DNA of 61,043 nucleotides, taken from Nitrospirota bacterium (lineage in GTDB: Bacteria; Nitrospirota; UBA9217). A model generated the notes under the pieces. That model saw only the letters and a program-made list of their open reading frames with translations, had not been told where the DNA came from and ran no database searches. Position 1 is the first letter of the stretch; every line of letters begins with the position of its first letter. The DNA is taken from assembly GCA_963741205.1 (NCBI GenBank), contig CAVUHW010000005.1, positions 1 to 61,043 on the forward strand, read 5' to 3'. The translations under genes were made by a program, and so were the position numbers. This document shows positions 586 through 49,683 of the stretch, piece after piece.

Positions 586-3030
586 TTATTGAGTCTTGTA
601 GCTCCATACAGCACTCGAAGTCTGGCCGCCTTTGCCGTCGTCCGCAATGACCTTCCAGAAATACGTCGTGTTCGTCGTGAGGCCGGACACCTGGGTACTC
701 AACTGGTTGGCCGTGGCGCTGATCGGTGGCGTCGTCGCGTTGTCGTTGCTGCTTGAGTGGCAGGACATGAATACAACTCCAGAGAGCAAAAGGCATGTGA
801 TGGTAAGCATCGTCATCCTCGAGCGCTTTGATCCGCTGCCCGCGATGAAGCCGATCAAAATGATCCCCGCTCCGAAACTCCCCAGGCCGGCAAAGAACAG
901 TCCGGATGGCGCGGCTGCCGTAACGTCGGCATTCGTGCAGCCCGTCGTCATGGCCTGATCTGTACAGTTGTTGAAATGGTATATCACCGCGTCGCCATCG
1001 GGGTCCGCCGACTTGTTCCAGACGAACGTCATCGTAGCGGGGATCCCGGTCTGTCCGTTGATCGGCGAAACAAGGACGGGTTGCCGATGGGGGATTGTTT
1101 CCGGCCGCGGATATCCCGGCCCCGCTCACCGTCATGGTGACCGACGGCCTGTCCGGCCTCGTTGCTCGGAATATCGAATGTATCCGAGAGACCGCTGTTG
1201 GCGGTCGGCGCAAAGTGGACCGTGAGCGTGACAGTTGGCGGCCGGCGCAATCGTTTGACCGGAACACGGGTCTGCGGTGATGCTGAAAGGAGCGGCGAGC
1301 GGATCTGCGCTCGCGATCGTGCCGATGACCAGATTCGCGGTTCCCGTATTGGTGATGGTGACCGTCGCATCGGCCGTAGTTTCCGATCGCAGTGCCTGCC
1401 GAACGGTACCGCGTTATCATTCGCAGGGGCAATGGAATCCGTGACCGAGATGATCGGCACCGGCGACGGCTGTGCCCGTGCCGCTGAGGGCAAACGACGA
1501 CAGTCGGCGTAGCCGGGTCATTGCTCGGGATATTGAAAGTATCTGCTCGAAGCCGCGGCGGCGGTCGGCGCAAACCGCGCGGTTATCGTGCAGCTTCCCG
1601 CGCGCGGCAGCGTCATGTCCCGAACAGAGTGTTGGCCGAGGATGCTGAACGGCGCTGCAAGGGGATCTGCAACGGCGATGGTGCTGATGATAAGGGCGCC
1701 GTCGCCGGCATTGCTCAGGGTAATCAGATGATCAGAGGTTGTCCCGGTGGTCACGGTCGCCGAAATCGAAGGGCGGCGCGAGCGTAACCGTGATCTTCTG
1801 GGGCCTGAACTCGAATGCGCCCATGTCGCAGGTTGCCACGCCGTCAAGGGGAATGTTGCCGTCCACGGGCCGCGGGATTCCCCGTGCGTCCGTGGGAGGA
1901 CAGACTGTTGCCGAGCCCTTGTCGATGGCCGGGCTTCCCGCGGGTAGAGCAGTGGTTTGAAGAGCCCCCCCGTTAAGGGCGAGCGCGCCGAGCAGAGGGT
2001 CGGTATTAGGCAGGTCGCCTGGGCCGGCAAAGCCGCAGGTATTGCCGTTGTCAAGGTTGTTTCCCTGTGACGTGATCGCGCCGCCGCAGTTGGCGGGCGT
2101 ATTACCCGAGATGATCGTATTTCTGACCGTTACGATACTGCGGCGATATTTCGAATGCCGCCGATGGCAGCAACCGCTGCAGTGGACGTATTGCCGCTTA
2201 TCGTGACATTTTGCAGAGTGACGGTGCCGCGGTGTTGTCGATGCCCGCACCCTGTCCTGCCGAGCTATTGCCGCTGATCGTAATGTTCGTGAGCGTTATC
2301 GTGCCGTTGTTTTGGATCCCGCCGCCGGTGGTGTTGCCGCTCACTTCGCCGATGGTCCAGGTGAGCACTCCGGCCGCTCCGTTGTTGACACCGCCGCCGG
2401 TGGAGTCATTGTTCGTTACCGCGACCGTGTTCATGGGAGGGTACCGGAGTTGTCCACTCCGCCGGCTCCGGGAGCAGCGCCTCCGGCCTTACAGGCCGTG
2501 ACGACAGCATTGTTCAGCGTAACCGTTGTACCATTACCTACATGAATGCCGCCGCCCAGCCCGACGATGTTATTCCCGTTGCGGATGGTTACGCCCGAAA
2601 TGGTCACATTAGCGCCTACCCGGGTCTCAAACACTCTGTCGAGCGCGCCGCCGTCGATAATCGTCGTGGCCGCACCGGCGCCGGTGATGGTAAGCGCGCC
2701 TCCGAGTCCGGTGATGTTGAGGTCGCCGGTTGCAGCCGCATTTTCACCTGCTCCGGGAATGGTCAGCGTATAGGTCCCTGCAGGGAGGATAATGGTGTCG
2801 GCAACTCCGACGGAAGCATTCGCCGCCTGGATGGCCGAGCGGAGCGTGCATTGCCCTGCCCCGCTCACGCAATTGGCGGCAAGGCCGGCCGCGTCGAGCC
2901 GTGCTGTTGACCGTGAAAGTGTGCTGGCATGACCCTGGACCGGCCACAGGAAAAGCAGCATGAGTCCCAGTATGACGCCCCTCCCTGTTGGATTGAAAAG
3001 CTGTTTTGTTGCATGTTCATATCGTTTCTA
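586..3030 (-). CDS. Large secreted or surface protein (CSLREA-like N-terminus, choice-of-anchor Q beta-helix, choice-of-anchor D/Ig-like domains, C-terminal FN3-like domain); split by several frameshifts
   Basis: Fragments 2431-2961 (CTLRSAIQAANA, GDLNIT, DRVF), 2198-2434, 1732-2250 (ALPAGSPAIDKG, DARGIPRP..CDMGAFE) and 586-1032 (NTTYFWKVIADDGKGG) are collinear; RBS aaggagg near 3035; start approximate. Confidence 0.75.
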
Positions 3031-3705
3031 CCTCCTTAATGGGTTTTATGTACGTGATTATATATGAGTAAACAAGAGCTCATGCTTACAGTCCAGATAA
3101 GCGTGCGTTAGATGGTAGAACGATATCAACGAGGATACGTGATGCGGATGATTCACGCTATCATTCATCCCATGTAACTAGGGGAATTGCTTGGTTTTCG
3201 GATAAGAACCACACTTTTTCTTATCGATAGATATTAATATACCACAATGATGCAAGATTTTATTAAAGCGGATTAAAAACCCGGTTTTTATGTACCAGCT
3301 TAATACTGTCTCGATATTGGGACCCTACTTTACTTTACGTTAACGATGAACATTCTGTCCCCGATTCGGAACAGTTCCCGCTCCATGCGCAGGACATCCG
3401 GCGGGACCTCGCATATCTTCCGAAGCTCCTTCTCGAACATGGGGACCAGTTTGTCATTCAAGCGAGCTCCATGTCCATGAGGAAGACGGCTATGTTCATG
3501 TTGATGGGGGATATGGAGAGGCAAAGATTGCATTCCGAAATTAATAGTCGATGAGTTAAAATATTAGACCATCATGATGAGGAAAAGTGAATAAGAAAGC
3601 GTAATGAGCTGCAAACATGGTGCATATGATTCCCGATTTGCTTTATGAATTAAAAAAGAATTCCAGATGGATGTCTATGCCCACTTGGAAGATCTGGAAA
3701 TGATT

Positions 3706-4907
3706 TTAATCGATCCAAAAATACTCATTTTGAGAACTCGTGTCTAACGGACGGGATGGACGACCAGCCCGGATGCCATTTGACTTCAGACCTGAACTCC
3801 GATTGACCGGCAGCAGTATCGAGTTTGCCGCTTTGTGTTCCGCCTCCACGGCAATCCATTTCAATTCAATTTCAACTCTCGATTTAATCGCAATCGAGGA
3901 CGTGCCATCGGGCTGAAGCGTCCCTTCGACTTCAAGCGTGCATTCACGGCTCCATGCCACTCGACGGCACTGTACCTCCAGAAATATCGTTGCGTTGTTA
4001 GAGCTTTTCCTGTTCAGCTGCCCCATTCGGCACCATTCATCGTGAAGGAACCGATAGCTGCCAACGGCAATGCTCTGGATACTGACGTTATCTGCCGCTC
4101 TTTCTTGACACCTTCGCCAACTCCCATGGTTGCCTTATTCCCTCAATGGCGTCGCGGTAATCGTTATTGTCTTCCGTCTAGGGTTCCTTTTACTTCAACA
4201 TCGGCCCCAACAATGAGGTCTGCCGTCGTCAGATCGGGCATGTTCATTGTTACGGTGCGTTTACCACCGACGATTGTTCCCGATGGTCAAGCCGTTCCCT
4301 GTCACCGACGGTATTTCCGTGAAGCTCGGCCTTGCCGCTTGCACAAATGCATTTCTCTGAACTGAAATCCGTGTGCGCATGAAAAACACCCGAGTTACTG
4401 CATGCGGCCGTGAGCCTCGACTCCGGGATGCGTCGTGCCCGGTGAGCTTGGTTTGCAGCCCGGTTCAGCGCATCGGATACCCTTTGTCTTCAAATGATGG
4501 CGGTTGCCCTCGTAGCAACCTCCATGTCCCATGATCGATTAGCGTACCAGTGGTGCCGCTTACGACAACATTTGCCGCGGGTCCCGAAGTTCCGGCTGGA
4601 ACTCAATGGACTTGGATTCGCCCTTTTTCGTGGTTGCGTCGACAGCCCCTTTGACCGTGACATCATTCCGATCTTGAGGTCAGTTTGCACATGAGCTGTA
4701 TCGTCGAATTTGAATGTAACGGATGCATCGGGTGCATCCGCTTTCTTCGAAAATTCGACACCTTTGACGAATACGCTGCCGAAACCTGTGATGACGCCTG
4801 TGGTTACTTACGTCTTTGCAGCCATAACGGCCGTGCCGCTGTTACTGCTTGTACCATGACACCCAATAAAGGGCAGCGTCATGGTCAGCAGTACAGTGAG
4901 AAACATG
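3706..4907 (-). pseudogene. DUF5666-domain lipoprotein, disrupted by stops and frameshifts
   Basis: Lipoprotein-like start (LPFIGC), GVITGFGSVFVKGVEF and LEVEGTLQPDG...EIELKW repeats; several in-frame stops. Confidence 0.6.
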
Positions 4908-5119
4908 CTTCTCCTGAATTTCGCGTTAATGATTCGATCTCCTCTAGTTTTTCTATTCTTAATTGAACATTAGACGAACCACCGGTCAAAAGGTTACAGC
5001 GAAAAAACTTTCCAGAATACTTCCTGTACTATGCACACGGCCTCATCGTGCCGGGAGTGTAATTTTCATGTCGTAACATTCAGCGAGACCTTCATCCTTT
5101 TATGTTAAAAGTCAAGTCT

Positions 5120-5561
5120 GGTGTAGACTGGACAGGCTGGCCGAGGTTTTCCCCCGGGTTTTAGATGTTTTTTTTAATGGTCATGAAAGTGTGCCAGCCG
5201 TAGGGGGATTCCCCGGTGCATTCATCGTTAGTGAGACTTTTCTTTGTTGGGACAAAAAACGATTCTCACAAATGCCCCAGGATCAATTTCCCCGGGGCAG
5301 TCCATATCCTGATACCCCCTCCGTAGGATCCTTTCTCGGGATTTGCTCACAGAACGGACAAATCTTTAAAACCACGCTTTTATCAGCAGACATGCCTACA
5401 TCATAAAAGGCAGCTGCATTTCCTTGATCATGTATTAAAGTTGTGGGTCCGCAGTCTGTAGTAGTGCAGACACGCTTCATGAGCCGGCTGCAGGATGCAA
5501 CAAAGCGGTACCCACGATGGATCAGGTTCTAAGATTGGCCGCTCTAACGTGGTCCCGTTTC
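5120..5561 (-). ncRNA. Candidate seekRNA/bridge RNA region of the IS1111-type element
   Basis: Non-coding region 3' of the transposase; the minus-strand transcript contains CAUCCUG (5491-5497) and ACUACAG (5456-5462), matching top and bottom strands of CATCCTGTAGT around the shared core. Confidence 0.6.
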
Positions 5562-6632
5562 TTATTGTATAACCGCAGGCACATACTCCTTCTGGTTCTT
5601 CAGGACGTATCTGATGCGGTTCAATAGCTTTCTAGCGATATGAACGATGGCCCTTGTTTTTGGCATGTTCTTAGAGAGGCGTTCAAATGCCATCAGCAAC
5701 GCCGGGTCTTTCCGTGTAGCAATCCACGAGCTTTCAATAATCAAATGCCGAAGTGATTGGTTGCGTCGGTTGGTAATGCCTGTTGTTATGTCCTTTTCTC
5801 CGCTGGAGTCCGTATTGGGGATGAGACCGACATAGCTCGCAAGTTTGTCGAGTGATCCAAACCGATCGATATTACACAACTCCGTGAGAAACGTCATGGC
5901 GGTGAGTGTGCTGATCCCCGATACGGTTTTTAACAATTTCACATTAGCTTTATATTCATCTGACCGAGAGAGGACGCGAATGTTCCGATTCAATTCGACA
6001 ACGATCCCTCGGATATGGTGTAACTCTTGGAGATGCACCATAAAGGAGACATTGCCACTAGCCTTTTCCATGCGGATCGCCTCAAGCCATTTAATGAACT
6101 TGCTTGACCAGTTACTGGTAACAATGTCAGTGGGTAGATGAATGCCATAAAAAGCGAGCATGGACTTGATCTGGTTCTTGCACCGGGTCTGCTTCTTGAC
6201 CATGTTTCGTCGGGTTCTGATCAAGCTGCGATCTTCGACCTTTATCCGGGTGGGAACATAGATTCCTACAAGCTCTCCGTTTCTATGGCATCGGGCAAGT
6301 TTGCGGCAATCTACCTTATCGGTTTTGCCTGCCCGTTCCTTGTCTGTTGTCGGAATGTCAGCAGGATTTACCACTATGCAGTCGATGCCTTTTTCTCTTA
6401 ACTGGTCGTGGATCCAGAATCCGGAATAGCCGGCTTCATAAACAGCGTGATAGGTTGCGCCAGGGAAGTTCCGATTCAAGTAGTTGGCAAGAACCGATGG
6501 GTCCGGCGGTTGTGTAAAGGTCTTATGTTCAAACTGTTGAGTCAAGATGCATACACTCCAACTTTTCTTATGAACGTCCAAACCGACATAAATATGTTGA
6601 CCGCTGAAATCGAGTTTGCTAATGTTAATCAT
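5562..6632 (-). CDS. IS110-family DEDD transposase/recombinase
   Basis: YVGLDVHKKSW, YEAGYSGF, KTDKVDCRKLA, GLIPNTDSSG motifs; intact 356 aa. Confidence 0.95.
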   Translation of the reverse strand: MINISKLDFSGQHIYVGLDVHKKSWSVCILTQQFEHKTFTQPPDPSVLANYLNRNFPGATYHAVYEAGYSGFWIHDQLREKGIDCIVVNPADIPTTDKERAGKTDKVDCRKLARCHRNGELVGIYVPTRIKVEDRSLIRTRRNMVKKQTRCKNQIKSMLAFYGIHLPTDIVTSNWSSKFIKWLEAIRMEKASGNVSFMVHLQELHHIRGIVVELNRNIRVLSRSDEYKANVKLLKTVSGISTLTAMTFLTELCNIDRFGSLDKLASYVGLIPNTDSSGEKDITTGITNRRNQSLRHLIIESSWIATRKDPALLMAFERLSKNMPKTRAIVHIARKLLNRIRYVLKNQKEYVPAVIQ

Positions 6633-6712
6633 GGCAAGTCTCCTTTCGGTGTATTTTGGTCGCCTAAACGAAAATATACCTTAAGTCAGACTTGCCATTT
6701 TAATCATAAGGT

Positions 6713-6770
6713 CTGAAGTTCACGCCAGAGACCAATCGCAGTTTTGCGCACTTCATATCGAATTTATCAT
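6713..6770 (+). repeat. Array repeat copy 2, right half (left half about 5040-5098, split by the IS)
   Basis: ctgaagttcacgccagagaccaatcgcagttttgcgcacttcatatcg aligns with the other copies. Confidence 0.75.
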
Positions 6771-6829
6771 CCCAATCAGCCCTAGAAGAGACTACGAAGA
6801 GCATCGGCACAATTTCCCATTGTTTCCTA

Positions 6830-7559: not shown

Positions 7560-7680
7560 ACCTGCCCCGGCCGTGAAAAGGGGGGCTGATCTTTTCTGGT
7601 AGAAATGTTCAGTCTCAATATCATCCTTTTATGTAGTTCACGCCAGATACAAATCGTGGATCTGTGCACTTCATATGGTA
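7560..7680 (+). repeat. Array repeat copy 3, with a 5-nt insert at the core
   Basis: ctgatcttttctggtagaaatgttcagtctcaatatcatcct-tttat-gtagttcacgccagatacaaatcg. Confidence 0.9.
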
Positions 7681-8000
7681 ATCCGAAGCAACTACCCATA
7701 GTACCTTGAAGTAGGCTCTACGATTGAGTGCATTCTACCTTCTTTTCAGCTGGCCAATACGGCTGGCCCTCTACTCTGCCCATGCAGTCCCGCCGCCATA
7801 TTCCCAGGCAGTTTCATAGAGCAGATGCACGTTAGAAACGCTTCATCACCCTTTTCCCCTCCTATGTTTTACCCATGCCCTCTGAGAACAATTTCCCTTG
7901 AACCTAAGAGTTTATGCGGATATACAAAAAACCCTTCTTTTGATAAGGTTTATCTAACGGTAGAGAGAAACATATAGAGCGTGAAAGGAGGGAACACATC

Positions 8001-9080: not shown

Positions 9081-9190
9081 TTCCCGATCAAGCCAAACCC
9101 TTCGCGAGAGGGGGACGGAAAGCGGCGGGTCTTAAAAGACCAAGATGGCCGAGCTGCCGAAGGATAATCTTTGTGCAGGTCGGCTTTTTC
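9081..9190 (+). promoter_or_regulatory. c-di-GMP-I (GEMM) riboswitch with terminator-type expression platform
   Basis: GCCAAACCCTTC-GCGA-GAGGGGGACGGAAAGC...GCCGAGCTGCCGA; G at the specificity position; downstream gcaggtcggc + U-tract can pair with gccgagctgc; ttgaca upstream. Confidence 0.9.
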
Positions 9191-10698: not shown

Positions 10699-10765
10699 GG
10701 CTAACCCCCGCATCCACACCGACGCGTGCAAGATCGGCGCGCATGGGTGATGCGGACCGTTCTAA
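10699..10765 (+). other. attC-like integron recombination site
   Basis: ggctaac...cgcatc[c]ac[a]cc / gggtgatgcg...gttctaa: AAC/GTT ends and a hairpin with two extra bases on the left arm. Confidence 0.8.
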
Positions 10766-10940
10766 TGCACCTTCAACTCGTATTTCACGCTTTGCAAATC
10801 GAGTGTGTCCGCGTAGTTGTAAGTGACGTTGATGCCGGCCGAAAAAAGTCAGTCTGATCTTTTCTGGTAGAAATGTTCAGTCTCAACGTCATCCTGTAGT
10901 ACACGCCAGATACAAATCGCGGATCCGCGCACTTCGTGTC
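10766..10940 (+). repeat. Array repeat copy 4, starting at the attC end
   Basis: gttgtaagtgacgttgatgccggccgaaaaaagtcagtctgatcttttctggtagaaatgttcag...catcctgtagtacacg. Confidence 0.9.
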
Positions 10941-11069
10941 GGAGATCACGTCCTTAAGCGTGTCGTCGCCCTCGCCGCTGATCAGCATGTTGAGGGAGTA
11001 GGTCTCCCGCGTTATGATGTGTTGAGATGCGATGAAGCAGCTCAACCTTTCTGGATAGTCGTAGATCAT
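10935..11069 (-). pseudogene. Fragment of a sigma-70 family (RpoD/RpoS-like) gene, region 3
   Basis: RETYSLNMLISGEGDDTLKDVISD resembles the SLETPIGEEGDSxLGDFIED motif; fused directly to the repeat. Confidence 0.5.
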
Positions 11070-11297
11070 AAACCTGGAGAAGAGTGCAAGAGCATGGGAC
11101 CCGTTTCAACTCATTGAAAAGTCATAATCCGCGAGATGTCCTTCTCAGCCGTTATCGAAATTTCAAATCTAAGATGCAGTTCATGAAGAACGTATAAATT
11201 CTTGAAACAAGAATTATCTATAATATCGAACGATCAAACAAAAGTGAATTGACAAAAATCCAACTCTCCACCAGGTTCAATAACTGGGGGACGTCAC

Positions 11298-12598
11298 TCA
11301 GTCCGGCGGCTTTACCGGGTGTTCAGATCTTCCCGGTGCATAGTATGCAAAAGTGTTTCTGCCCGTTTCCTTAGCGTAATACAGTGCGCTGTCTGCATAT
11401 CGGAAAAGGGCATCGATATCTTCAGTGTCGTCAGGATACACGCTGATGCCTATGCTAATCGTGATAGAAAGGTCGCACTCGGCGACGACGCACTTCTCCC
11501 TGAACTCGTTCAGGATCTTCCGGGCAATTCCGGTGATGTCCTCCCGCTGCTCAAATCCGCCGAGAAAGATGGTGAACTCGTCCCCCCCGATCCGGGCAAG
11601 GGCGTCCGAATCCCTTATCGCAGCTTTCAGACGCGCCGCGACCGTCCGGAGCAACTGATCGCCCACTTCATGTCCCTGCGTGTCGTTGATCTCCTTGAAG
11701 CGGTCAAGGTCAAGGAACAACAGCCCCGCTTTTTTTTGATTGCGGTGGGTTTCTGCCAGCCCGAACTGTAAGAGTTCCATGAAAAGACGCCTGTTCGGCA
11801 GACCAGTTAGTGAGTCATGATTTGCCATGTGCCGTATCTTTTCTTCCAGCAGTTTGCGCTCCGTGATGTCCACGATGAAGGCGATGCCATCCGGCTGGCC
11901 TTCGAGCTTTGCGGCCCCGAAGAGACCCCAGCGTCGCGAACCGCCTGGGCCGATATATTCCGTTACATAGGGTGTGATACGGCCGCTCGCTTTGAACGCC
12001 GCGGCAACTTTGAGCATGTACGGCATCCACTTCACCGGCACCAAGCGGTCCCAGCGAACTTTGCCTGTCAAGAGGTCCTCCCGGTTGTGGCCAATCATCA
12101 AAAGAAACGCGTCATTGGCCTCAGTGATCCTTCCATCAGTGTCGAAGTAGCCAATGCCGATTATGCCGCTCTCGCTCAAACGCCGGAAGCGTAGCTCGCT
12201 GCGCTGCAACGCCTCGACATCCCGTTTCCGCTCGATGGCATACCGAATGGACCGCGCCAGGAGGCTGCCGTTGATCTGCCCTTTTACCAAATAGTCCTGA
12301 ACGTCCAAGTGCAGTAGCTTGATTGCCACCTCTTCATCGTCCTGGCCAGTAAACACGACGATCGGAATCTCCGGCGATTGCTTTCTGACCGCCTGAACTA
12401 CCTCGATTCCATCGCCATCGGGAAGCCTCAGATCAACGAGAGCCACATCAAAGCCGCCCTGCTTCAGGAAACAAGCCCATCGGAGAGCCGAGGGGCATGG
12501 ACACAGGAAAAGCCATGCGGCTTAACCATAATGCGGATGAGTTCGGCATCATCAGGGTTATCCTCGATGGTAAGCACTTTTATGGCGGACTTTATCAT
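11298..12598 (-). CDS. REC-PAS-GGDEF diguanylate cyclase (frameshift near 12465)
   Basis: VLTIEDNPDDAELI, DLRLPDGDG, HDSLTGLPNR, RDSD I-site, RIGGDEF. Confidence 0.9.
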
Positions 12599-13105
12599 AG
12601 CGCACCCTATCTATATTACTGTATTCTCACCCGGCAGGGAGATGATCCTATTTATACATCTAAAATATCACTGGCTGTAAGTAGCCTCTGTGATTTAAGT
12701 TACATGGGGCTCAGCATCTCATATGTATCGGTTTCCGTTGCAACATTGAAGGTGCTTCGCGGAGTAACCGAATCGTGGATTAAGTAAAGAATATCATATC
12801 TAGTTTTCAGTTATGCCTACTTCCTGAACGTCGCGCCTGACACTTTCCTTTCAAACGTTACTTTCATGCCGAATTAAACGTCATTCTTAATATTGTGCTG
12901 ACGTATTCATGAAATCTGCCCATGGGTATTTCTGCCTATAGACAGGCCTTTTCCCCGCTGATAATATACGGCAGTTCCCTGAAATGGGATTAATCGCCCA
13001 AGGATAGGTCTTCAACGACCGATATACAGCATATCATAAATGGTTCTCAAAAATTAGGCGCATTTTTTAAAGAGACATCGTCAAGAGCTATGTCGGAGCT
13101 GGGGA

Positions 13106-13498
13106 ATGGAACGAAAAGTACTCATTATCGATGATAATGACGATGACATCCTGATAACGAAGTCTATTCTTTCCAAGATCGGGTTGGGAATCACGATTGA
13201 GGTGGCGTCAAGCGGTGAAGAGGGGCTCGCGCATGTCCGGGAGGGAACGGTTCTTCCGGCGCTAATATTGCTTGACGTAAAAATGCCGGGGATGAGCGGC
13301 ATTGACGTGTTGCGAAAAATACGCAGCGAAAAACGACTTGCCTCTATTCCTGTGGTTATGGTCACCCATTCAATTCTTGAATCTGACTTCGTGGCGTCTT
13401 ATAAGTCCGGCGCCAGCAGCATCCTTCTCAAGACAGCAGACACAGATAAATTCAAGAGATACATGCTGAATCTTTTTGAGAACTTCATGGCAAAGTAG
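13106..13498 (+). CDS. Single-domain response regulator
   Basis: LIIDDNDDD, LILLDVKMPGMSG, IPVVMVT. Confidence 0.9.
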   Translation: MERKVLIIDDNDDDILITKSILSKIGLGITIEVASSGEEGLAHVREGTVLPALILLDVKMPGMSGIDVLRKIRSEKRLASIPVVMVTHSILESDFVASYKSGASSILLKTADTDKFKRYMLNLFENFMAK

Positions 13499-13657
13499 CC
13501 CGGCATTCGTCAAGATGATACGACTCCGTGATGAAAAAAACAATATCAAATTTCTCACGGATATCCGATGAAGAGGATCTACGATCAACTCGATCCGCGT
13601 GGTAAGATGCGAGTAGATGATGATTTGAGTGCCGTGCGATCAGAGAAAGGAGAAGAA

Positions 13658-13945
13658 ATGTCACCTGATAAAATTCAAGCTATTCGTGATTATCTGGGTA
13701 AACGCTTCCCACACTCAAGACATGATGATGAAATCGATTTCGATAGATATGGACACAAATTCCGAATCGTTACAAATGACTCGGTGTTACTGTTTTCTGT
13801 CTCTGCATCATTTATCGAAGATAATGAGATAGACATACTGGCCAAGACACTTGATAGACTTGAAATAGTTAGCCAATTAGAAAACAATCAAGAGTCAACC
13901 GTTATAGTCAGAAAATCTGGCATATCAGTCGTTCCGAGAAATTAA
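13658..13945 (+). CDS. Hypothetical protein
   Basis: AT-rich ORF with RBS aaagga before ATG 13658. Confidence 0.6.
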   Translation: MSPDKIQAIRDYLGKRFPHSRHDDEIDFDRYGHKFRIVTNDSVLLFSVSASFIEDNEIDILAKTLDRLEIVSQLENNQESTVIVRKSGISVVPRN

Positions 13946-14001
13946 TTGACTTGACCTGCAAACGAAAGTATCGCATATCAAGGATAACTTAAGGACACTG
14001 T

Positions 14002-14038
14002 TTCTAACATTGTCTTGCATCCGACAAATCAGTTAGAT
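14002..14038 (+). other. Collapsed attC-like remnant
   Basis: ttctaac...gttagat complementary core ends but too short for a full site. Confidence 0.35.
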
Positions 14039-14104
14039 CAAAGTTTATTGATTAGAAACAGCCTCCTCAACATTCTCCCTTCATACCACAGGCTTGTGTT
14101 GCAC

Positions 14105-14235
14105 ATTAGTAAGTGTCGTTGATGCTGGCCGAGAAAAGGTAGTCTGATCTTTTCTGGTCGAAATGTTCAGCCACATTAACATCCTGTAGTTCACGCATGT
14201 CGCTTATCGCGAGTCTGCGTACTTCCCGTCGAATT
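14105..14235 (+). repeat. Array repeat copy 5
   Basis: gtaagtgtcgttgatgctggccgagaaaaggtagtctgatcttttctggtcgaaatgttcag...catcctgtagttcacg. Confidence 0.9.
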
Positions 14236-14423
14236 TACCAATTCCACAACGATAAATCTCACGTTGACCGGCATTGATGTTTGCTGTGGACCTGAATGCT
14301 GTGTTGATTATTGCACGTCTCTATCTATTATCCTCAGAGAGAAAAATATTACCCAATTTTCCAGATTTTGGTATCATAAACTCCTGGCGTGCACACATGG
14401 ATATTTAGCGGGGGGTATCCCTA

Positions 14424-16488
14424 ATGAAAAGGATTGTATATACATTGGAAGCAGTATTGTTTCTTCCTGTGATCATGGTGGTTCTGAGCTGCGGACCTGA
14501 TGGGAAAATAATCAGCCCATATTCTCGAATAACGTCCCTGTTGCGAATGCCGGGCCCGACCAGAACGTGACGACGACAACGGTAGTAACACTTGATGGCA
14601 GCGGGAGCAGCGATACCAACGGCGATGCGTTGACATACAGTTGGTCATTTACGTCAAAACCTGCTGGGAGCACGGCGATGCTATCCAGCTTGGCGGTGGT
14701 CAATCCAACATTTACCGCGGACAAGGACGGGGCGTATGTACTCAGCCTCGTGGTCAACGACAGCACGGCAAGCAGCACGGCGGATACGGTGACGATCAAT
14801 GCAGCAACAGCCAACTCGGCGCCTGTTGCGAATGCAGGTCTGGACCAGAACGTAGCGACGACAACGGTAGTAACACTTAATGGCAGCGGGAGCAGCGATA
14901 CCAACGGCGATGCGTTGACATACAGTTGGTCATTTACGTCAAAACCTGCTGGGAGCACGGCGATGCTATCCAGCTTGGCGGTGGTCAATCTAATGTTTAC
15001 CGCGGACAAGGACGGGGCGTATGTACTCAGCCTCGTGGTCAACGACAGCACGGCAAGCAGCACGGCGGATACGGTGACGATCAATGCAGCAACAGCCAAC
15101 TCGGCGCCTGTTGCGAATGCAGGTCTGGACCAGAACGTAGCGACGGCAACGGTAGTAACACTTAATGGCAACGGAAGCAGCGATGCCAACGGCGATGCGT
15201 TGACATACAGTTGGTCATTTACGTCAAAACCTGCTGGGAGCACGGCGACACTATCCAGCTTGGCGGTGGTCAATCCGACGTTTACTGCGGACAAGGATGG
15301 AGCGTATGTACTAAGCCTCGTGGTCAACGACGGCACGGTAAGCAGCACGGCGGATACGGTGACGATCAATGCAGCAACAGCCAACTCGGCGCCTGTTTCG
15401 AATGCCGGTCCGGACCAGAACGTAGCGACGACAAGGGTAGTAACACTTGATGGCAGCGGGAGCAGCGATGCGAATGGCGTATGCTCACTTACGCTTGGTC
15501 GTTTACATCAAGGCCAGCCGGAAGCATGACAGCGCTTTCAAGTTCCACAGTGGCCAAACCAACGTTTACGGCTGACAAAGACGGGGCGTATATACTTAGC
15601 CTCCTGGTCAATGATGGGCAGGTAAACAGCGCAGCAGATACCGTAACAGTAATAGCTTTTAGACCAGTCCCTGTACCTGACACTGGCCAGTCGACTCACT
15701 ATACCGCTACGTTTGGTGAAGACGCCGACTATCTCATTAACCCGCAGTCATTTGCAGACAACGGGGATGAAACAATCACTGACAATATTACTGGGCTTGT
15801 GTGGCAAAAGCAGGATGACGGAATAATCCGTAACTGGTCGGATGCGAATACGTATTGCAATAACAATAGCCCTGGCTTGCCTGGTTCTGGTTGGCGACTT
15901 CCAACACGTATGGAATTGTTGAGTATTATAAACTACGGTAAAGATAATCCTGTAGCTGACATTTCATATTTTCCAAATACCAAATCATTGTCGTACTGGA
16001 CGTCTATTACGACCCCAAATAATACGACCATTGCAAGGCTCGTTGGCTTCGATTATGGCACGACGGGCATCGGGAATAAAACCGACACTTCCTACGTACG
16101 TTGCGTTCGGGGAGGAGCTGCGTTAAAGAGCATCATAGACAACGGAGACGGTACCATCACCGACGCATTCACTACTCTCATGTGGCAAAAACAGGACGAC
16201 GGGACTACGAAGACATGGGAGGGTGCAATAGCCTACTGCGAAGGCCTAGTCTTTGCCACATATTCAGACTGGCGACTGCCGAACATCAAAGAATTGAGTT
16301 CCCTTGTAGATGACGGCAGATATGTGCCGGGAATTGATACCTTCTATTTCCCCAATACGCAATCTTCGGTCTATTGGTCTTCTACAACCTCTGGATGTAC
16401 GGTTGCTGGATGGGGTGTAAACTTCTGGGGCGGGGATACAGATGCCTTTAGTAAGGTCAGTTCCTATTCTGCTCGGTGTGTTCGCTAA
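14424..16488 (+). CDS. Lipoprotein with PKD/K319L-like Ig repeats and two C-terminal DUF1566 (Lcl) domains; frameshifts near 14510 and 15480
   Basis: Lipobox VLSC; PVANAGxDQNV..TLDGSGSSD repeats; DNITGLVWQ, WRLP, YWSS, VRCVR motifs twice. Confidence 0.85.
14536..15480 (+). repeat. Intragenic tandem repeat, 285-bp unit, about 3.3 near-identical copies
   Basis: Shadow ORFs recur at 14641, 14926 and 15211 (period 285). Confidence 0.95.
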
Positions 16489-16504: not shown

Positions 16505-16675
16505 TTACTACCAGAAAATTCGCAGTTTTTCAACCGACCTCAGACGAGAACTTGTAGCTGGTCTTGACGCAGCCCAGAGAAAAGATGACTGAACTATTCT
16601 GATTGAAAAGTTCAACCAAACGAACATCCTGACGTTTTGTTTTCATAATCTTTCCCTTACCGCACACTACATCTG
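16505..16675 (+). repeat. Array repeat copy 6 (diverged)
   Basis: taccagaaaattcgcagtttt...cttgtagc...ctgaactattctgattgaaaagttcaa...catcctgacg. Confidence 0.65.
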
Positions 16676-17464: not shown

Positions 17465-17635
17465 ACTGGTATTCGTTAAAGTTTTAATAGATCGCAACTC
17501 CAACAGTTGTAGGTGTTGTCGATGACCGTGATGGCGCCAAAGAACAACAGATGCCATTCGTAACTTTCAACGATTCCTGCATCCTGGACTAATCGCCGAG
17601 TGCAGAACTTGGAAATTATAACTTTCATGCCGTAA
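17465..17635 (+). repeat. Array repeat copy 7 (subtype B)
   Basis: gtaggtgttgtcgatgaccgtgatggcgccaaagaacaacag...attcctgcatcctgga, close to the copy at 27847. Confidence 0.85.
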
Positions 17636-17779
17636 TCGATGCCCCTTATGATTTAGATTCATTCAGCAATCTGAATCACGCCTCCTCTATTTCAATATAT
17701 TCTACTTGCCCCTTATACCGGAATAAAGTATCCTCGCAATATAAGTACAAAAATATTCCGGTGTTGGTCTCGAGTATCC

Positions 17780-18662: not shown

Positions 18663-19763
18663 ATACAAACGCAATAAAGTTTGTTACAAATTAGCCTATT
18701 TATGTTATACTGGGAGGCATGAAAACCTCTCCCGTAAGTTCTGAAAAGGTAACCAAAGAGCAATTGCTGGCCCTCGCCGAAAAAGTGCCCGGAGCCTGGA
18801 TTGGCATAAAGATAGCCACCCTCCTTTTGGTACTGGAGGGGCAGCGGCCGGGTTGGATCTCAGAGGTTCTGGGACAGACCCGGATGAATGTGAATCGCTG
18901 GACGCGGGCGGTAAGCAAGGACGGCGTAGAAGCCTTGATCCCGAAAAAGCCGTCGGGCCGTCCAATCCGCATGACGCCGAAGATTGTGGCCCAGTTGGAG
19001 CGTCATCTGGAGGAATCGCCTCAGAAGTTTGGATTGAACCGCGTTCGTTGGGACGGCCCCACGTTGGCGACCCATTTACAGCGGCAGTTCGGGGTAAAGC
19101 TGAAAGTCCGCCAAGCCCAGTATTGGATGCATCAACTCGGGTATCGGTTAAAGCGGGCCAGTCATGTTTATCTTCAGGCGAAGGCAGAAGACGCGAAGAA
19201 ATTCGCCCGGAACCTAAAAAAAACTCAAAACGCTGGGCCCTAAAGAAACCATTGTTTTTCAGGACGAAAGCGGTTTTACCCTGCATCCAAGGCTCGGCCG
19301 CGGATGGGCGCTTCTGGGAAAGCGATTGAAGGTTCCGACGACCAGCCAGCATCAAAAACGCTTGAATGTTTCCGGCTGGGTGGCTCCTCTCCTGGGCCGC
19401 GCCGGGATGATCCAGACAGAACGGGGAAACCGCGAGGGGTTCCTCAAAGTGTTGCAACACCTTTATAGTCAGCTTCGCGGCTACACTATCTGGCTGTATG
19501 TTGATCGAGCACGTTGGCATAGAGGCGATCCGATACGGGAGTTTCTGAGAAAGCATCGAAGGCTCCGACTCGTATATTTGCCACCTTATCAGCCCGCCTT
19601 GAATATGCAGGAGCGGATATGGCGACAGATTCGTTATGAATCAACCACCAATCGGTGGTTCGATAATCTTGATGCAATCTGGGCCACAGTTCAGAGAACT
19701 CTTGACTCGTGGTCAAAGCACAAAATCAGGCGACTTTGTAACATTACTTAGTGCGTTATATTA
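18661..19763 (+). mobile_element. IS630-family insertion sequence
   Basis: TA at both ends; imperfect terminal inverted repeats taatacaaacgcaataaagtttgttacaaa / tttgtaacattacttagtgcgttatatta. Confidence 0.9.
18719..19751 (+). CDS. IS630 transposase, HTH ORF plus DDE ORF joined by a +1 shift at the A8 run near 19216-19223
   Basis: HTH ORF 18719-19243; second frame has FQDESGF, YVDRARWH, LPPYQPALNMQERIW. Confidence 0.9.
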
Positions 19764-20684: not shown

Positions 20685-20855
20685 AATCGATATTTCGCAG
20701 CCATTTGCAGTAAGCGCTGGTGCATGATTGTAAGGTGTTGTCGATGACCGCTAGAATGTCGAAGAACAAAAAGACCATTTGTAACTTTCGTCGAATCCTA
20801 CATCTTGAAGTTGTTGTTTTTGACTGATACACTGAGATGCATGTTTCCTGTCGAA
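20685..20855 (+). repeat. Array repeat copy 9 (subtype B)
   Basis: gatatttcgcag...gtaaggtgttgtcgatgaccg...ccatttgtaactttcg...catcttgaagtt. Confidence 0.8.
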
Positions 20856-23069: not shown

Positions 23070-23270
23070 GATTGTTACCGGAATTTCGCAGTTTACCGAT
23101 TAAGCGCGGATCCAAATGGATAAAAGCTGTACCACGTGCCGAGAAATATCATCCTTGGGGAGCTGTGCCAGCCTGGAGCAGCATCAATTCCGATTGTAAA
23201 CTTCAGTGCGGCGAACATCCTGTAGTTCACGCGAAACACAAATCGCGGGTCTGTGCACTTCATGTCGTAG
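23070..23270 (+). repeat. Array repeat copy 10, starting at the attC end
   Basis: taccggaatttcgcagttt...catcctgtagttcacgcgaaacacaaatcgcgggtctgtgcacttcatgtcgt. Confidence 0.9.
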
Positions 23271-23593
23271 TTGTTGCCGTTGCCTTTGATGGAAACATCC
23301 ACACATCTTCCTGTAAATTGCACATGTGATATGATGAAAGCAGTTGTATGTTTCATGTGGAATTATTGCCTCATCTACAAAGAACATCACCACCCAGTGA
23401 TCGGGAAAACAGGTGTAAAAAAGTGACAACCCTAAGAATTCCCATTCTGCATTCCTATTCTGCATCGTTGACTTCACCAAAAGTTTGTGCTTTAGTTCAA
23501 ACATACGTCTGTAACCCACATTACACGACATTCTGAAAAGTATTCAGAATGGATATTAATGTTTCTTTGACACCCACTGGAACAAATAAATGA

Positions 23594-23710
23594 TTCCACG
23601 ATAAAGCCAAACCCTTCGTGAGAGGGGGACGGAAAGCGGCGGATCTTAAAAGACCAAGATGGCCGAGCTGCCGAAGGATGATGCCTTTGGTGAGCTCGTC
23701 CTTTTTATTT
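23594..23710 (+). promoter_or_regulatory. c-di-GMP-I riboswitch, second copy, with terminator
   Basis: Aptamer nearly identical to 9081-9165; cgagct...agctcg + U-tract; ttgaca upstream. Confidence 0.9.
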
Positions 23711-25545: not shown

Positions 25546-25937
25546 AGAGTATGTGTAACTTCTATCCGCTTCGCATATGCTGCTGCATGTGAACACATAT
25601 GAGAGTTTAGACTACTTCCTCCTACGAATAGTTGTGTTATAAAGATTACTATAGAAAGGCAGGAGAACTTACATTACTTCCTGGGTCCTTGAACCCTGAC
25701 TACAGTCTGTTCCCTGCCTCCCGTAGCCATGATAGGTTGATTGGGCCAACGAGCCCTGGTAACGCTGGAGGATTGGTCGGGAGGCGTTTCCTGCCTGTCT
25801 GCCAGTGTTCATTTTGTTCGAGTTAAGATAAAAAGGGAATTGATAAAATCAATGCATCGAGGATATAAGAACACGGGAATCATGCCGGATGCAATAAACG
25901 ACGATCCACCCAAAACGTCCCCCCAGGAGGGAATTCC

Positions 25938-27749: not shown

Positions 27750-27970
27750 AGGCTTGTAGATATATCACGTAATTTCCAAACAATGAAACTTTCGTGAAGT
27801 ACAGACGGTATTTCGCAAGCTTGTCAGTTGCCCGTCTTGGGCATTAGTAGGTGTTGTCGATGACCGTGATAGCGCCGAAGAACAACAGACTCCATTCGTA
27901 GCTTTGATCGATTCCTGCATCCTGAAGTTCTCGCCCAACGATATCGTTTGAATTATCAACTTCATTCAGT
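27750..27970 (+). repeat. Array repeat copy 12 (longest, subtype B)
   Basis: gcttgtagatatatcacgtaatttccaaa...ggtatttcgcaag...gtaggtgttgtcgatgaccg...catcctgaagttctcg. Confidence 0.85.
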
Positions 27971-28168
27971 AATTGGCGGCAGTAGGATCAGCTCGATGAA
28001 GCTTGCTTAGATCCAGCGACGTCAGGAAAAGAAGGCATGGTATTAAATCGTTCTTCGCTTTTACGATGTTTCGAACAAGGGGCAGAGAAAAGATTCTCTG
28101 CCCCCCTGTTATTTTGACGGTTGCCTCCATAGCCGATACTCGTTCTTCGTCACTGAATAATGCGCTTC

Positions 28169-37897: not shown

Positions 37898-38794
37898 TCA
37901 CGGCGACCTCCGGTAATACTCCCTTTGACCCGCGATCACGAGTACGACTCCGGCCAGGATGACGAACATGGCGATAACGCCTGCGCCCGTAATCCGCTCG
38001 CCGGCGACCCAGATGCCGAGAAGGACCGCCAAAACAGGGTTTACGTAGGCATAGCTCGTGGCCAGAGCAGGCCGGACGTTCTTCAGCAAAAACGTATAGG
38101 CGGTGTATCCCAGGAGCGACCCGAACAGCGCAAGATAGATCATTGCGGCTGTCGACCGCGTCGAGACGTTCGAGGGGATTCGCTCGCCCGATGCAAGGCC
38201 CACGACAAGAACCAGCGCCCCGCCGCTCAGCATCTGGGCTGCGCTCGCCATCATACCTGACGGCAGGGAAAGCCGCAGGCTCAAGACCGAGCCGAAGGAC
38301 CACGATGCCGCGGAGAGAACGAGGAGGGCCGCGCCCGCCGGATGGGCACGCAGATCGCCGTCGATGTTGAGAAGAACAATCCCGGCAAACCCGAGCGCGA
38401 GGCCGATCCATTCCGATCGCTGCGGCCACTGCTTCCAGATGCCGGAAAAGAGCACGGTCCAGAGAGGCGTCGTGGCGATCACCAGGGCCGCAATGCCGGA
38501 CCCCACCCACTGCTCCGCATATACGACCCCGCCGGTCCCTCCCAGAAGAAGGAACGCTCCGACAGCCGCAGACCCGGCCCATTGAGGTCCGTTGGGAACG
38601 CCGACCCCCTTGTATCTCAAGTAGAGATACATACCGGCTCCGACGACCATATAGCGGAACCCCGCCGTAAAGAACGGAGGGAAGTCTTCAAGCGAGATCC
38701 GGATCGCCAGGTACGTCGAGCTCCATGCAAGGTACAGGGTAATGAGCGCGATCAGGATTTTTACTCTTCGGTCGTCTTTCACGGGAGCCCGCAA
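37898..38794 (-). CDS. yedA: Drug/metabolite exporter (EamA, YedA-like)
   Basis: LYLAWSSTYLAI, ATSYAYVNPVLAV. Confidence 0.85.
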   Translation of the reverse strand: MRAPVKDDRRVKILIALITLYLAWSSTYLAIRISLEDFPPFFTAGFRYMVVGAGMYLYLRYKGVGVPNGPQWAGSAAVGAFLLLGGTGGVVYAEQWVGSGIAALVIATTPLWTVLFSGIWKQWPQRSEWIGLALGFAGIVLLNIDGDLRAHPAGAALLVLSAASWSFGSVLSLRLSLPSGMMASAAQMLSGGALVLVVGLASGERIPSNVSTRSTAAMIYLALFGSLLGYTAYTFLLKNVRPALATSYAYVNPVLAVLLGIWVAGERITGAGVIAMFVILAGVVLVIAGQREYYRRSP

Positions 38795-38923
38795 TTCCTT
38801 GTAGTGCAGTCTTGATATAAATTAAAAAAGCCACGGAATGGGCATTCCGCGGCCTAGTGCGGCCGGCATGTTCGACCCGGCCGGAAGATCCTGTCGCGGC
38901 TGACGGCGAAGATGCAGCAGGCG

Positions 38924-39430
38924 TCATTTCAGCTTTTGGATCACCGCTTTCAGGATGTCGGCCCTCGTTATGATGCCGATGAGTGTGTTCTTGTCGTCCA
39001 CCACGGTCAAGCGTCTGACCCGTTTATCGGACATGATCCGCACAGCTTCCGCGATATTCGCGCCGGGTTTGATGGTAAAGGCCGGCGACGTCATGATGTC
39101 TCCGACATGGTCTCCGAGCTTGCGTTCGCGGAGCGGTTCTCCGAGCATGTATTTCAACAGGTCTTTGAAAGTGTGCTCCCGGCTCACGCCCACCATCGAG
39201 AGTATGTCCGCCTGCGTGATGATGCCGATTACCTTGTTCTCCTTGTCCACGACGGGAAGACCGCTGATGTTTTTTTCCGACAGAATGTTCGCCACCTGCA
39301 CGATGCTGTCATATTTCGAGATGGCAAGAACGTTCGTCGTCATCACGTCGCGAACGTGCATTTCGAGTCCCATGGACGACCGTATATGCCCGCCACTGCT
39401 TTGTTCCGCACTCATGATAATGCCCTCCAC
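38924..39430 (-). CDS. CBS-domain protein
   Basis: VRDVMT, ISGLPVVD, IGIITRADIL. Confidence 0.9.
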   Translation of the reverse strand: MEGIIMSAEQSSGGHIRSSMGLEMHVRDVMTTNVLAISKYDSIVQVANILSEKNISGLPVVDKENKVIGIITQADILSMVGVSREHTFKDLLKYMLGEPLRERKLGDHVGDIMTSPAFTIKPGANIAEAVRIMSDKRVRRLTVVDDKNTLIGIITRADILKAVIQKLK

Positions 39431-39503
39431 GCCTTATAGAATAAATCTCCCGCCAACAGGGAGTGTCCTCCGCCCTCGAAGGAAGGGCTGAAGAGATAAC
39501 CCC

Positions 39504-40412
39504 TCACGGCGGGCACTTACTGCAAATCGATGTGAACAGCGCAGTGCTCAAGTAGCGGTCGCCGCGGTCGGGAAGAATGACGACGATCGTGCCGTCTTTC
39601 ATCTCCGTTGCTTTCTTGATTGCAGCCCACATAGCCGCACCGCTGCTCATACCGACGAACAGGCCTTCCTCAAGCGCCAGCCGGCGCGTGGTGCTGAAGG
39701 CGTCATCGTCCTGGACGTTCCACTTCTCATCGAGCCCGCCGGGGTTGAATATCTTCGGCACGATGGACTCCGTCATGTTTTTCAAGCCCTGGATCTTGTG
39801 GCCCAGGAGGGGTTCCACGCCCAGGACCGTGATCGAACTGCTGTATTCCTTGAGTCTCCTGCCCGCGCCCATGAGCGTGCCAGTCGTGCCCATGCCCGCT
39901 ACGAAGACGCTCACCTCGCCATTGGTCTGCTCATAGACCTCCCTGCCCGTTGTTTCGTAGTGGGCCTGGACGTTAGCGGGGTTGTCGAACTGGTTCGGCA
40001 TGAAGGTGCCTTGTCTATGCTCATCGTAGATCTTGTGCGCAAGCCGTATCGCGCCGTCGGTGCCTTCGTTGCCGGGGCTCAGGACGAGCTCCGCGCCAAA
40101 GGCCTCCAGCACTTTTCTCCGCTCCATGCTGACGCATTCGGGCATGACAAGCTTCACTTTGTATCCCTTGGCAGTGCCGACCATGGCAAGCCCGATGCCG
40201 GTATTGCCCGACGTGGCCTCGAGAATGGTCGATCCCTTCACGAGTCTTCCTTCCGCTTCGGCGGTCTTGACCATGTACCAGGCAATGCGGTCCTTAACCG
40301 ACCCGCCGGGATTATTCCCTTCGAGCTTGGCGAGGAGCCTGACTTTCGGATTCGGATTGATTCTGTCCAGCCGTGCAAGCGGCGTGTTGCCGATGCAATC
40401 GAGAATGCTCAT
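39504..40412 (-). CDS. cysM: Cysteine synthase (CysM-like)
   Basis: KLEGNNPGGSVKDR, EATSGNTG, GTTGT, PDRGDRYLST. Confidence 0.9.
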   Translation of the reverse strand: MSILDCIGNTPLARLDRINPNPKVRLLAKLEGNNPGGSVKDRIAWYMVKTAEAEGRLVKGSTILEATSGNTGIGLAMVGTAKGYKVKLVMPECVSMERRKVLEAFGAELVLSPGNEGTDGAIRLAHKIYDEHRQGTFMPNQFDNPANVQAHYETTGREVYEQTNGEVSVFVAGMGTTGTLMGAGRRLKEYSSSITVLGVEPLLGHKIQGLKNMTESIVPKIFNPGGLDEKWNVQDDDAFSTTRRLALEEGLFVGMSSGAAMWAAIKKATEMKDGTIVVILPDRGDRYLSTALFTSICSKCPP

Positions 40413-48611: not shown

Positions 48612-49674
48612 ATGAGCAAGCTGTTTTCACCATTCACCCTGCGCGGGATCGAATTTAAGAACCGCATCTTCGTCTCTCCCATGTGCCAGTATTCGAGCTG
48701 GGAGGGGATGCCGACGGACTGGCACCTTGTTCACCTGGGGAGCCGTGCCGTGGGCGGCGCAGCCCTCGTCATGGTGGAGGCGACAGCTGTCAGTCGCGAA
48801 GGCCGGATCAGCCCGGATGACAGCGGTATCTGGGCGGACGAACACTCCGAGGCATTTGCCCTGATCGCCAAATTCATCTCCGAACAGAGAGCGGTTCCCG
48901 GAATCCAGCTCGCCCACGCCGGGCGCAAGGCATCGACCGACGCGCCGTGGTGCGACGGGAGGCCGCTCAAGCCGTATGAGCGCGGATGGCAGCCGCTCGC
49001 ACCGAGTTCCATCCCCTTTGCCGACGGCTTTCCCATACCGCGAGAAATGACCGTGAATGATATTGATGACGTGGTCGCGCAGTTCAGGGATGCAGCCAAA
49101 CGCAGCCTTGCTGCGGGGTTCCAGGTCGTCGAGGTCCATTCTGCGCATGGTTATCTCCTACACGAGTTCCTCTCCCCGCTCTCCAATAAAAGGTCGGATG
49201 AATACGGCGGGAGCCTGGAAAATCGTATGCGCTTTCCGCTGAGGGTGGCCATGTCGGTGCGCGAGGTCTGGCCGGACAAGCTTCCCGTCTTCGTCCGCAT
49301 CTCCGCAACGGATTGGGTGGAGGGCGGGTGGGACCTTGCGCAGTCAATTCAGTACAGCATGCGGCTTAAGGACGCTGGGCGTCGACCTTATCGACTGTTC
49401 CGCCGGCTATCTCATGCCCCGCGTGCACATCCCCGAAGGACCGGGTTATCTGACCCCCTTTGCAGCCGCGATCCGGCGCGAGGCAAAAATTGCGACAGGC
49501 ACGGTCGGCTTCATTACCGAACCTGCCCAGGCCGAGCAGATCGTGACTACGGAAATTGCGGATGCAGTTTTTCTCGCTCGCCAGATGCTTCGTGACCCCT
49601 ACTGGCCGCTCCATGCGGCAAAGGCGCTTGGCGTGGACCTGCCCTGGCCGGTCCAGTATGCCCGGGCGAGGTGA
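48612..49674 (+). CDS. NADH:flavin oxidoreductase (YqjM/NamA-type old yellow enzyme); frameshift near 49375
   Basis: SPMCQYS, QLAHAGRK, HSAHGYLLHEFLSPLSN, LRDPYWP. Confidence 0.92.
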
Positions 49675-49683
49675 GGAATAACC

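Follow-up and report, generated by a model that had tools for sequence, protein, structure and literature searches.

The stretch of DNA analyzed here (the window) covers 61,043 nucleotides (nt) of a contig, designated C5, of the draft genome (G000; assembly GCA_963741205.1) of an uncultured soil Nitrospirota bacterium, and positions 5099 to 6714 of it are occupied by an insertion sequence (IS) of the IS110 family that we refer to as IS-A. IS-A is 1616 bp long including one copy of a CT core dinucleotide, carries its transposase gene on the minus strand and interrupts a member of a directional repeat family. The features of the element are as follows.

5099-6714, minus strand: complete element IS-A; both junctions read, transposase frame open, two more full copies in the genome
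5097-5098, no strand: left CT core copy (AG when read on the transposase strand), adjoining the left target half CATC before it
6713-6714, no strand: right CT core copy, followed by the right target half GAAGT; junctions read directly
5562-6632, minus strand: transposase/recombinase of the DEDD type, 356 residues, assigned by Pfam, NCBIfam and motif
5099-5120, no strand: right end of IS-A in the transposase orientation, one inverted-repeat arm, with a -35-like TTGACT (reverse complement of 5110-5115)
6687-6712, no strand: left end of IS-A, the other inverted-repeat arm, with a -10-like TATGAT (reverse complement of 6703-6708)

The transposase matches PF01548 (E 1.3e-15) and PF02371 (E 7.2e-17), scores 209 bits against the NCBIfam model NF033542 ("IS110 family RNA-guided transposase"; cut-off 140) and displays the GL-P----SG motif as GLIPNTDSSG, and so combines the N-terminal DEDD/RuvC-like domain and the motif-bearing C-terminal PF02371 domain of DEDD IS110-family enzymes. 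The only solved structures related to it are those of the IS621 and ISCro4 recombinases, to which the similarity is weak (E about 1e-6). Noncoding stretches of 82 nt upstream and 463 nt downstream of the gene give IS-A the layout of the IS1111 group. The longest inverted repeat in the element joins its two ends (5096-5120 with 6687-6711), extends over 25 nt with 72% complementarity when ungapped and needs indels to be aligned. Joining these ends through one core copy is predicted from the sequence to bring TTGACT and TATGAT together across a 17-nt spacer, a spacing that is the same in relatives with a differing right end. The transposase frame is open in all three full copies found in this genome, and IS-A is intact and was probably active recently. 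As a separate observation, the left end (6688-6710) shows complementarity (23 nt, 78%) to the stretch with the ribosome-binding site and the beginning of the transposase gene (6619-6641), and these complementary sequences are kept in most relatives; such a pairing may form a hairpin that blocks translation of read-through transcripts.

Excising 5099-6714 in silico fuses ...CATC-CT with GAAGTTCACGCC and restores the core of the interrupted repeat, with CT at both junctions, a reading that the initial annotation of the window had made directly; the right half of this repeat is retained as an nhmmer match at 6713-6773. The assembly (50 contigs, 84% complete, kin to metagenome-assembled genomes (MAGs) of soil Nitrospirota) contains three full copies of IS-A and one contig-end fragment (C36:89-333), with the other two full copies (C9:13174-14788 and C41:13754-15369) at about 94% identity. 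Every full copy is flanked by ...CATCCT and CTGAAGT..., and the fragment is followed by CTGTAGT..., which places all four insertions at CATC-CT-GWAGT, with flanks that diverge beyond about 7 nt on either side and with every copy oriented alike relative to the surrounding repeats. IS-A therefore shows the site- and orientation-specific insertion, with a short core at both junctions, that characterizes the IS110 family. The window has five occurrences of the full 11-mer CATCCTGWAGT, where 0.03 would be expected and none of 100 shuffles gives five, always on the plus strand, at 172, 10890, 14180 and 23216 and, in its GAAGT form, at 27918; three of the sites listed initially are retained as given, the fourth shifts by one base from 23217, and the fifth is additional. 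Genome-wide, 18 perfect 11-mers are unoccupied, 15 of them inside members of the repeat family. One metagenome contig carries the IS beside a different CATCCT flank.

It was proposed from the sequence that the noncoding region downstream of the transposase gene encodes an RNA programmed to target this repeat. The two 7-mers on which the proposal was based are confirmed on the minus strand, with CAUCCUG at 5497-5491 and, 28 nt on, ACUACAG at 5462-5456. In the orientation of the IS, the target CATC-CT-GWAGT of the window plus strand reads ACTWC-AG-GATG; CAUCCUG on the 5' side complements the top strand of the core and right flank, ACUACAG on the 3' side complements the bottom strand of the left flank and core, and both guides span the core. 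CAUCCUG 5' of ACUACAG is the guide order of IS1111-type seekRNAs, in which the complement of the top strand comes first, and is reversed in IS110-type elements, according to the seekRNA report (PMC11187229). The copy on C41 carries ACUUCAG instead, an exact fit to its own GAAGT site.

A single 7-nt match is indistinguishable from chance, and it is covariation between guides and flanks across relatives that decides. We therefore compared 31 elements representing 19 guide types, namely the three full copies from this genome and 28 of 34 related loci retrieved by scanning one genome per species. Most of these loci, which share 49-90% identity with the query, come from MAGs of Nitrospirota, and others from MAGs of Desulfobacterota-type, Bacteroidota and other bacteria; the 28 retained loci share 54-90% protein identity, and six partial matches (L038, L041-L044 and L046) were excluded. 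Because left ends are nearly constant, the junctions can be read in these relatives, and the loop segments and flanks are found to vary in concert. L013 and L014 carry the guides GCUUCAG and CUUCCUG and lie between ...GCTTCAG and AGGAAG or AGTAAG. In L022-26 and L036, which sit in a repeat of quite another kind, rich in CTGCG, the complement of the 5' guide matches 10-11 nt of the right flank, and the guides of L028 and L034, L031, L032 and L035 spell their own right flanks over 8-11 nt. L037, with guides identical to those of IS-A, is inserted between ...ACTACAG and AGGATG..., the same target sequence. Relatives with different guides are thus found in correspondingly different sequences, as the initial annotation would have it, and supply developers of bridge and seek RNA tools with natural pairs of guide and target from a phylum not yet explored.

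We scored the eight flank positions adjoining the core, after dropping the right flank of L029 (a second partial copy follows), the right flank of L018 (its end is lost to another insertion), and the right end of L030 and left flank of L031 (contig ends). For the 3' guide, an average of 4.83 of these 8 positions agree with the element's own left flank and 3.03 with foreign flanks (30 flanks); the corresponding averages for the 5' guide and the right flank are 6.25 and 3.68 (28 flanks). The summed score of 320 is reached in none of 10,000 permutations of guide types (mean 200.6, standard deviation 15.5, maximum 272), and the test leans conservative because similar targets among related types raise the shuffled scores. 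It could be supposed that the 7-mers and the matches to the IS ends arose by chance and that the protein alone picks the target, for example through the inverted repeats, given that 7-nt matches are not rare in 463 nt and that one match noted earlier, CCUUUUAUG, proved to be unconserved. Covariation over 19 guide types, unmatched by any permutation, and re-targeted matches that extend to 8-11 nt argue strongly against chance, and we consider this explanation extremely improbable. As an aside, the right end of L029 (about 3069-3636) runs directly into another copy of the first part of that element's downstream region, in a tandem or nested arrangement.

A consensus fold was calculated with RNAalifold from 17 representatives aligned over about 195 nt. 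The predicted RNA forms two domains, with the following features in the window.

5443-5515, minus strand: target-binding domain (domain 1), with an outer stem of 5505-5515 paired with 5443-5452
5456-5497, minus strand: loops of the target-binding domain (RNAalifold), 5' CAUCCUG (5491-5497), an inner stem-loop and 3' ACUACAG (5456-5462)
5364-5440, minus strand: second, donor-type domain (domain 2), with its closing stems (RNAalifold)
5373-5431, minus strand: loops of the second domain, 5' loop 5418-5431, an inner hairpin with a variable apex (5386-5417) and 3' loop 5373-5385

Both 7-mers are unpaired and lie on opposite sides of a single internal loop of domain 1, and in each of the 17 sequences the guides fall in the same loop columns of the alignment, which again argues against a chance origin. 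Over the 35 predicted pairs, 95.7% of alignment cells are paired, compared with 35-44% when partners are slid; compensatory change is seen in 16 of the 35 pairs, those of the stems flanking the guide loop included; and 0 of 500 shuffles reach the observed values in four of five measures. The prediction thus gives IS-A the structured RNA with loops matching both target strands that is expected in the IS110 family. Rfam returned no family on IS-A apart from one chance-level match. A different view would be that the internal target copies act as DNA or are relics of insertion, and that the downstream region serves another purpose: the RNA itself has not been observed, and covariation between guides and flanks is silent on which molecule pairs. 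The compensatory changes in stems around the guides, G-U pairs among them, point to a folded single strand, and members of the IS110/IS1111 family have been shown to use guide RNAs of this kind (PMC11187229; PMC11208160), as the very name of NF033542 reflects. We judge the DNA or relic view very improbable.

Domain 2 repeats the plan of domain 1, and its 3' loop contains the motif AUARAAG, identical to the terminal bases of the right IS end together with the core. In IS-A this motif is AUAAAAG at 5377-5383 (CTTTTAT on the plus strand), and its A/G state agrees with the A or G of the right IS end in all 29 readable elements, including L040, in which the loop motif is one base shorter. Two matches to the IS ends had been noted initially in this part of the RNA, and they fare differently. 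AUAAAAG stands, as a conserved loop that tracks the IS end. The other, CATAAAAGG at 5402-5410 on the plus strand (CCUUUUAUG on the RNA), reaches from the end of the inner stem into the apical loop in domain 2, a variable hairpin that is unconserved among relatives with a matching left end, several of which match at the right end also; because the hairpin differs freely among relatives sharing the left end, we take this match as a coincidence.

Family assignment, insertion that is specific in site and orientation, covariation of guides with flanks, and the fold are all established computationally, and RNA-guided targeting of the repeat is supported by the insertion sites, the covariation and the loop position of the 7-mers. 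We conclude that IS-A, an IS110-family element of IS1111-type layout, very likely encodes a two-domain guide RNA (a seekRNA or bridge RNA) that spells both halves of its target. If IS-A behaves like IS621, ISEc11 and ISKpn4, joining of the ends in the excised circle would create a promoter from which the transposase gene and the RNA would be transcribed; the RNA-protein complex would then pair with both target strands and recombine at the CT/AG core, and IS-A would have been inserted in one direction between cassette-like units of an array, with no gene broken. RNA production, binding by the recombinase and circle formation are inferred here from characterized family members.

Several results weigh against this conclusion. 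The copies on C5 and C9 have the guide ACUACAG in GAAGT sites and thus a single mismatch, either tolerated at that position or a sign that the guide drifted after insertion. Poor fits are seen at the right flank of L045 (3/8) and the left flanks of L018 (2/8) and L035 (3/8), and L033, with an altered left end, scores 4/8 and 5/8. The relatives share descent, so that insertions are not all independent, and covariation in domain 2 concerns one position with two states, which implies few evolutionary events. No guide for the left IS end was convincingly found in the aligned relatives or the fold, and only AAGG is common to the 5' loop of domain 2 and the complement of that end. Finally, none of the 24 sequencing runs listed for the sequence was an RNA dataset, the circle junction is absent from the contigs of the four DNA runs searched, and neither an empty donor site nor a circle junction was observed for the window copy.

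IS-A is a new, deep-branching RNA-guided element of the IS110/IS1111 type, the mechanism of which was already described in 2024. Its transposase is 23.6% identical to that of IS4321 over 82% of the length (E 4e-7), which in pairwise comparison brings it no nearer to IS4321 than to IS621 (E 1.2e-6). As described by Siddiquee et al. 2024 (PMC11187229), the IS1111 elements ISEc11 and ISXne4 share with IS-A a downstream noncoding region, guides that give the top-strand and then the bottom-strand complement and overlap at the insertion point, and close relatives redirected by changes in the loops while the stems remain constant. An RNA downstream of the gene and a junction promoter are likewise described for such elements in PMC11187229 and PMC11208160. 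IS-A differs from ISEc11 and ISXne4 in that its protein is very distant from that of IS4321, the only named IS1111 member compared, its inverted repeats are imperfect and gapped, its host is an uncultured soil Nitrospirota, and it is known computationally. Where the IS1111 form has perfect or near-perfect subterminal inverted repeats of 11-13 bp with extensions of 7 (or 6) and 3 bp, the inverted repeat of IS-A is 72% complementary and gapped, with a right extension readable as 3 bp and a left one of 3-5 bp, not 6-7. IS621 (Durrant et al. 2024, PMC11208160; structure 8WT6) resembles IS-A in having a target loop and a donor loop, a CT core at both junctions and a promoter at the circle junction, the last predicted from sequence in IS-A; unlike IS-A, IS621 has its RNA upstream of the gene and the reversed guide order (PMC11208160), a layout represented in this genome by the element IS-B.

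IS-B is one of three further IS110-family lineages in this genome (IS-B, IS-C and IS-D), the proteins of which are 21-31% identical to that of IS-A. IS-B (C45:1165-2568; 21.5% identity), with its RNA upstream of the gene in the IS110 layout, lies between ...CATCCT and CTGTACT... and carries the segments GCAUCCUGG and AGUACAG on opposite sides of an internal loop; read in the orientation of IS-B, the two guides follow each other in the opposite order to those of IS-A, as the IS110 layout predicts. A second IS-B copy (C10, about 87950-89200) carries ACUUCCUGG and sits after ...ACTTCCT. The window contains one fragment of this lineage:

25622-25800, plus strand: orphan IS-B left end with its guide RNA region, 87.5% identical to C45:1161-1341 and supported by its fold

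The guides of the orphan are ACUUCCUGG and GACUACAG, its left flank ends in ACTTCCT and no transposase gene follows, an arrangement that recalls the free-standing Ssr9 modules of ISPpu9 (PMC12288879). IS-D (C14, about 37973-39728; 21.6% identity), with its RNA region downstream in the IS1111 layout, is inserted between ...AGTTCAG and GATGCT..., and its downstream region contains CCAUCCU and AGUUCAG. IS-B and IS-D are thus unrelated lineages aimed at the core used by IS-A with matching guides of their own. IS-C ends at the outer left edge of the repeat on C32 (about 2190-3733; ...CAG then TAGGTGTTG) and carries ACCUACU there; the left flank of this copy does not fit its guide, and a C12 copy (about 49000-50560) has a different guide and a correspondingly different flank. 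What goes beyond the ordinary here is that several unrelated lineages in a single genome converge on the same core. Three highly divergent recombinase lineages, two of IS1111 and one of IS110 layout, are aimed at one core dinucleotide, and together they form a clean natural data set on RNA-guided recombination, in which the reading of a single site by the two layouts can be compared directly.

The target of these elements is a directional repeat of about 150 nt with 58 nhmmer matches in the genome, concentrated on a small number of contigs and in one orientation per array contig. Besides the window, contigs that bear it include C9, C41, C45, C32, C10, C14 and C40. Its members in the window, all detected with nhmmer, are given below.

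10819-10972, plus strand: intact repeat member
102-260, 7568-7682, 14109-14268, 16555-16635 and 17509-17647, plus strand: other repeat members
20733-20812, 23147-23298 and 27847-28005, plus strand: further repeat members

The core, CATCCTGWAG, is the best-conserved part of the repeat, and in the window the blocks between repeats, 0.7-9 kb in size, contain unrelated genes, most of them on the plus strand. The last member is found at about 28 kb, after which housekeeping genes begin; no recombinase adjoins the array at this right end, where genes for cytochrome P460-like, outer-membrane, Crp-type, RF3 and acyltransferase proteins are found instead. The repeat is noteworthy in itself, with its cassette-like blocks, no integrase beside it and breakpoints (see below) at the site where the IS elements cut. 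The initial annotation was right to take the repeat as the target, and we amend its description to a dispersed family with members kilobases apart, distinct from attC and repetitive extragenic palindromic (REP) sites.

Three identities of the repeat were tried and rejected. An attC site is an imperfect palindrome with R''/L''/L'/R' boxes that is served by an integron integrase; here, 35 full repeats give no consensus structure on either strand, single-strand fold z-scores are +0.97 to -2.72, Rfam gives no match, and the R''/R' consensus was not seen when checked by eye without an attC model. The one integron integrase (IntI) of the genome is encoded on another contig, which is free of repeats, and no IntI above the cut-off is found in three related genomes. 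As coding sequence, the repeat offers short open frames and one protein-like minus-strand frame, but shows no three-base periodicity; the left half has 789/718/766 substitutions by codon phase and the right half 1385/1438/1214, and in most copies a stop lies some 18 codons before the core. As a known RNA, it has no Rfam match in the window at gathering thresholds or in 10700-14400 at E values up to 5. With regard to the integrase itself, we note that it lies at C18:131982-133436 on the minus strand of a 196-kb contig, scores 367.5 bits against TIGR02249 (cut-off 265) and has a long N-terminal extension.

Elements that exploit intergenic sites in a comparable way are known. ISKpn4, ISPst6 and ISPa25 of the IS1111-attC group are RNA-guided like IS-A, insert in one orientation at a recombination-like site between cassettes and, as in this genome, include diverged transposases that share one target; the target of IS-A differs from theirs in that it is not attC and has no conserved hairpin. 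With the REP-targeting elements ISPa11, ISPpu9 and ISPpu10, this genome shares the presence of several IS110-family lineages in one abundant intergenic repeat family, and orphan RNA modules are common to ISPpu9/Ssr9 (PMC12288879) and the present case. Unlike REP sequences, the repeat described here is not a palindrome; it measures about 150 nt, has a direction and recurs at intervals of kilobases. In G001, one of the three related genomes, IS relatives are found in look-alike sites that share short blocks with the repeat; a repeat profile from the present genome gives no match in 80 kb of G001, and single-sequence searches of G001 recover the IS flanks and one more intact site only, with no dense arrays seen. 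G001 and G002, the genomes of L013 and L037, each also contain at least 10 copies of near-identical tyrosine-recombinase genes of about 295-322 codons, two of which, in G001, lie within the region holding IS relatives.

Comparison of repeat members reveals that their halves assort independently. C41:2836 and C5:14109 share a right half and differ in the left, as do C34:83951 and C9:11298, C5:27847 and C5:17509 share a left half and differ in the right, and in each pair the similarity stops within CATCCTG. Four duplicated segments (C9:11241, C9:7310, C9:4800 and C9:4804) end 10 nt or less from a core, another, at window position 14179, begins at a core, and one metagenome contig fuses the right flank at 6713 to a different left half. 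Since three IS lineages cut at the repeat core, the units of the array might be shuffled by the IS110-family recombinases themselves, or when IS copies located in different repeats recombine and are then precisely excised, which would explain the varied joins of left and right halves exactly at the core; this would add to RNA-guided insertion of IS-A and not replace it. Homologous recombination in the conserved core, or an unknown site-specific recombinase, would give the same pattern, no shuffling intermediate was seen, many of the duplicated segments have their partner copy outside any array, and the metagenome evidence is a single short contig. The breakpoints fit recombination at the core, be it by homologous recombination, IS elements or an unknown enzyme, and array rearrangement by IS-A is plausible; shuffling specifically by the recombinases or their IS copies we consider unlikely. 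A bolder idea, that the repeat marks an integron-integrase-independent cassette array built or shuffled by RNA-guided recombination, with units joined at the CT core, strikes us as quite improbable. If it were true, the three core-aimed IS lineages would be cassette-moving machinery and not squatters, and the array would be a bridge-recombinase counterpart of the integron.

The window contains further features. Two cyclic di-GMP-I-GGC riboswitch aptamers (RF03167) are found on the plus strand at 9083-9162 and 23597-23676 (69.7 and 71.8 bits); the copies are 95% identical over 84 nt, and each precedes a plus-strand gene inside an array block. Positions 14537-15647 comprise four tandem 285-nt units (73-98% identical) in a long plus-strand frame, corresponding to repeated domains of about 95 residues. 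Finally, two adjacent frames at 18719-19751 on the plus strand resemble, by eye, the split transposase of another IS family.

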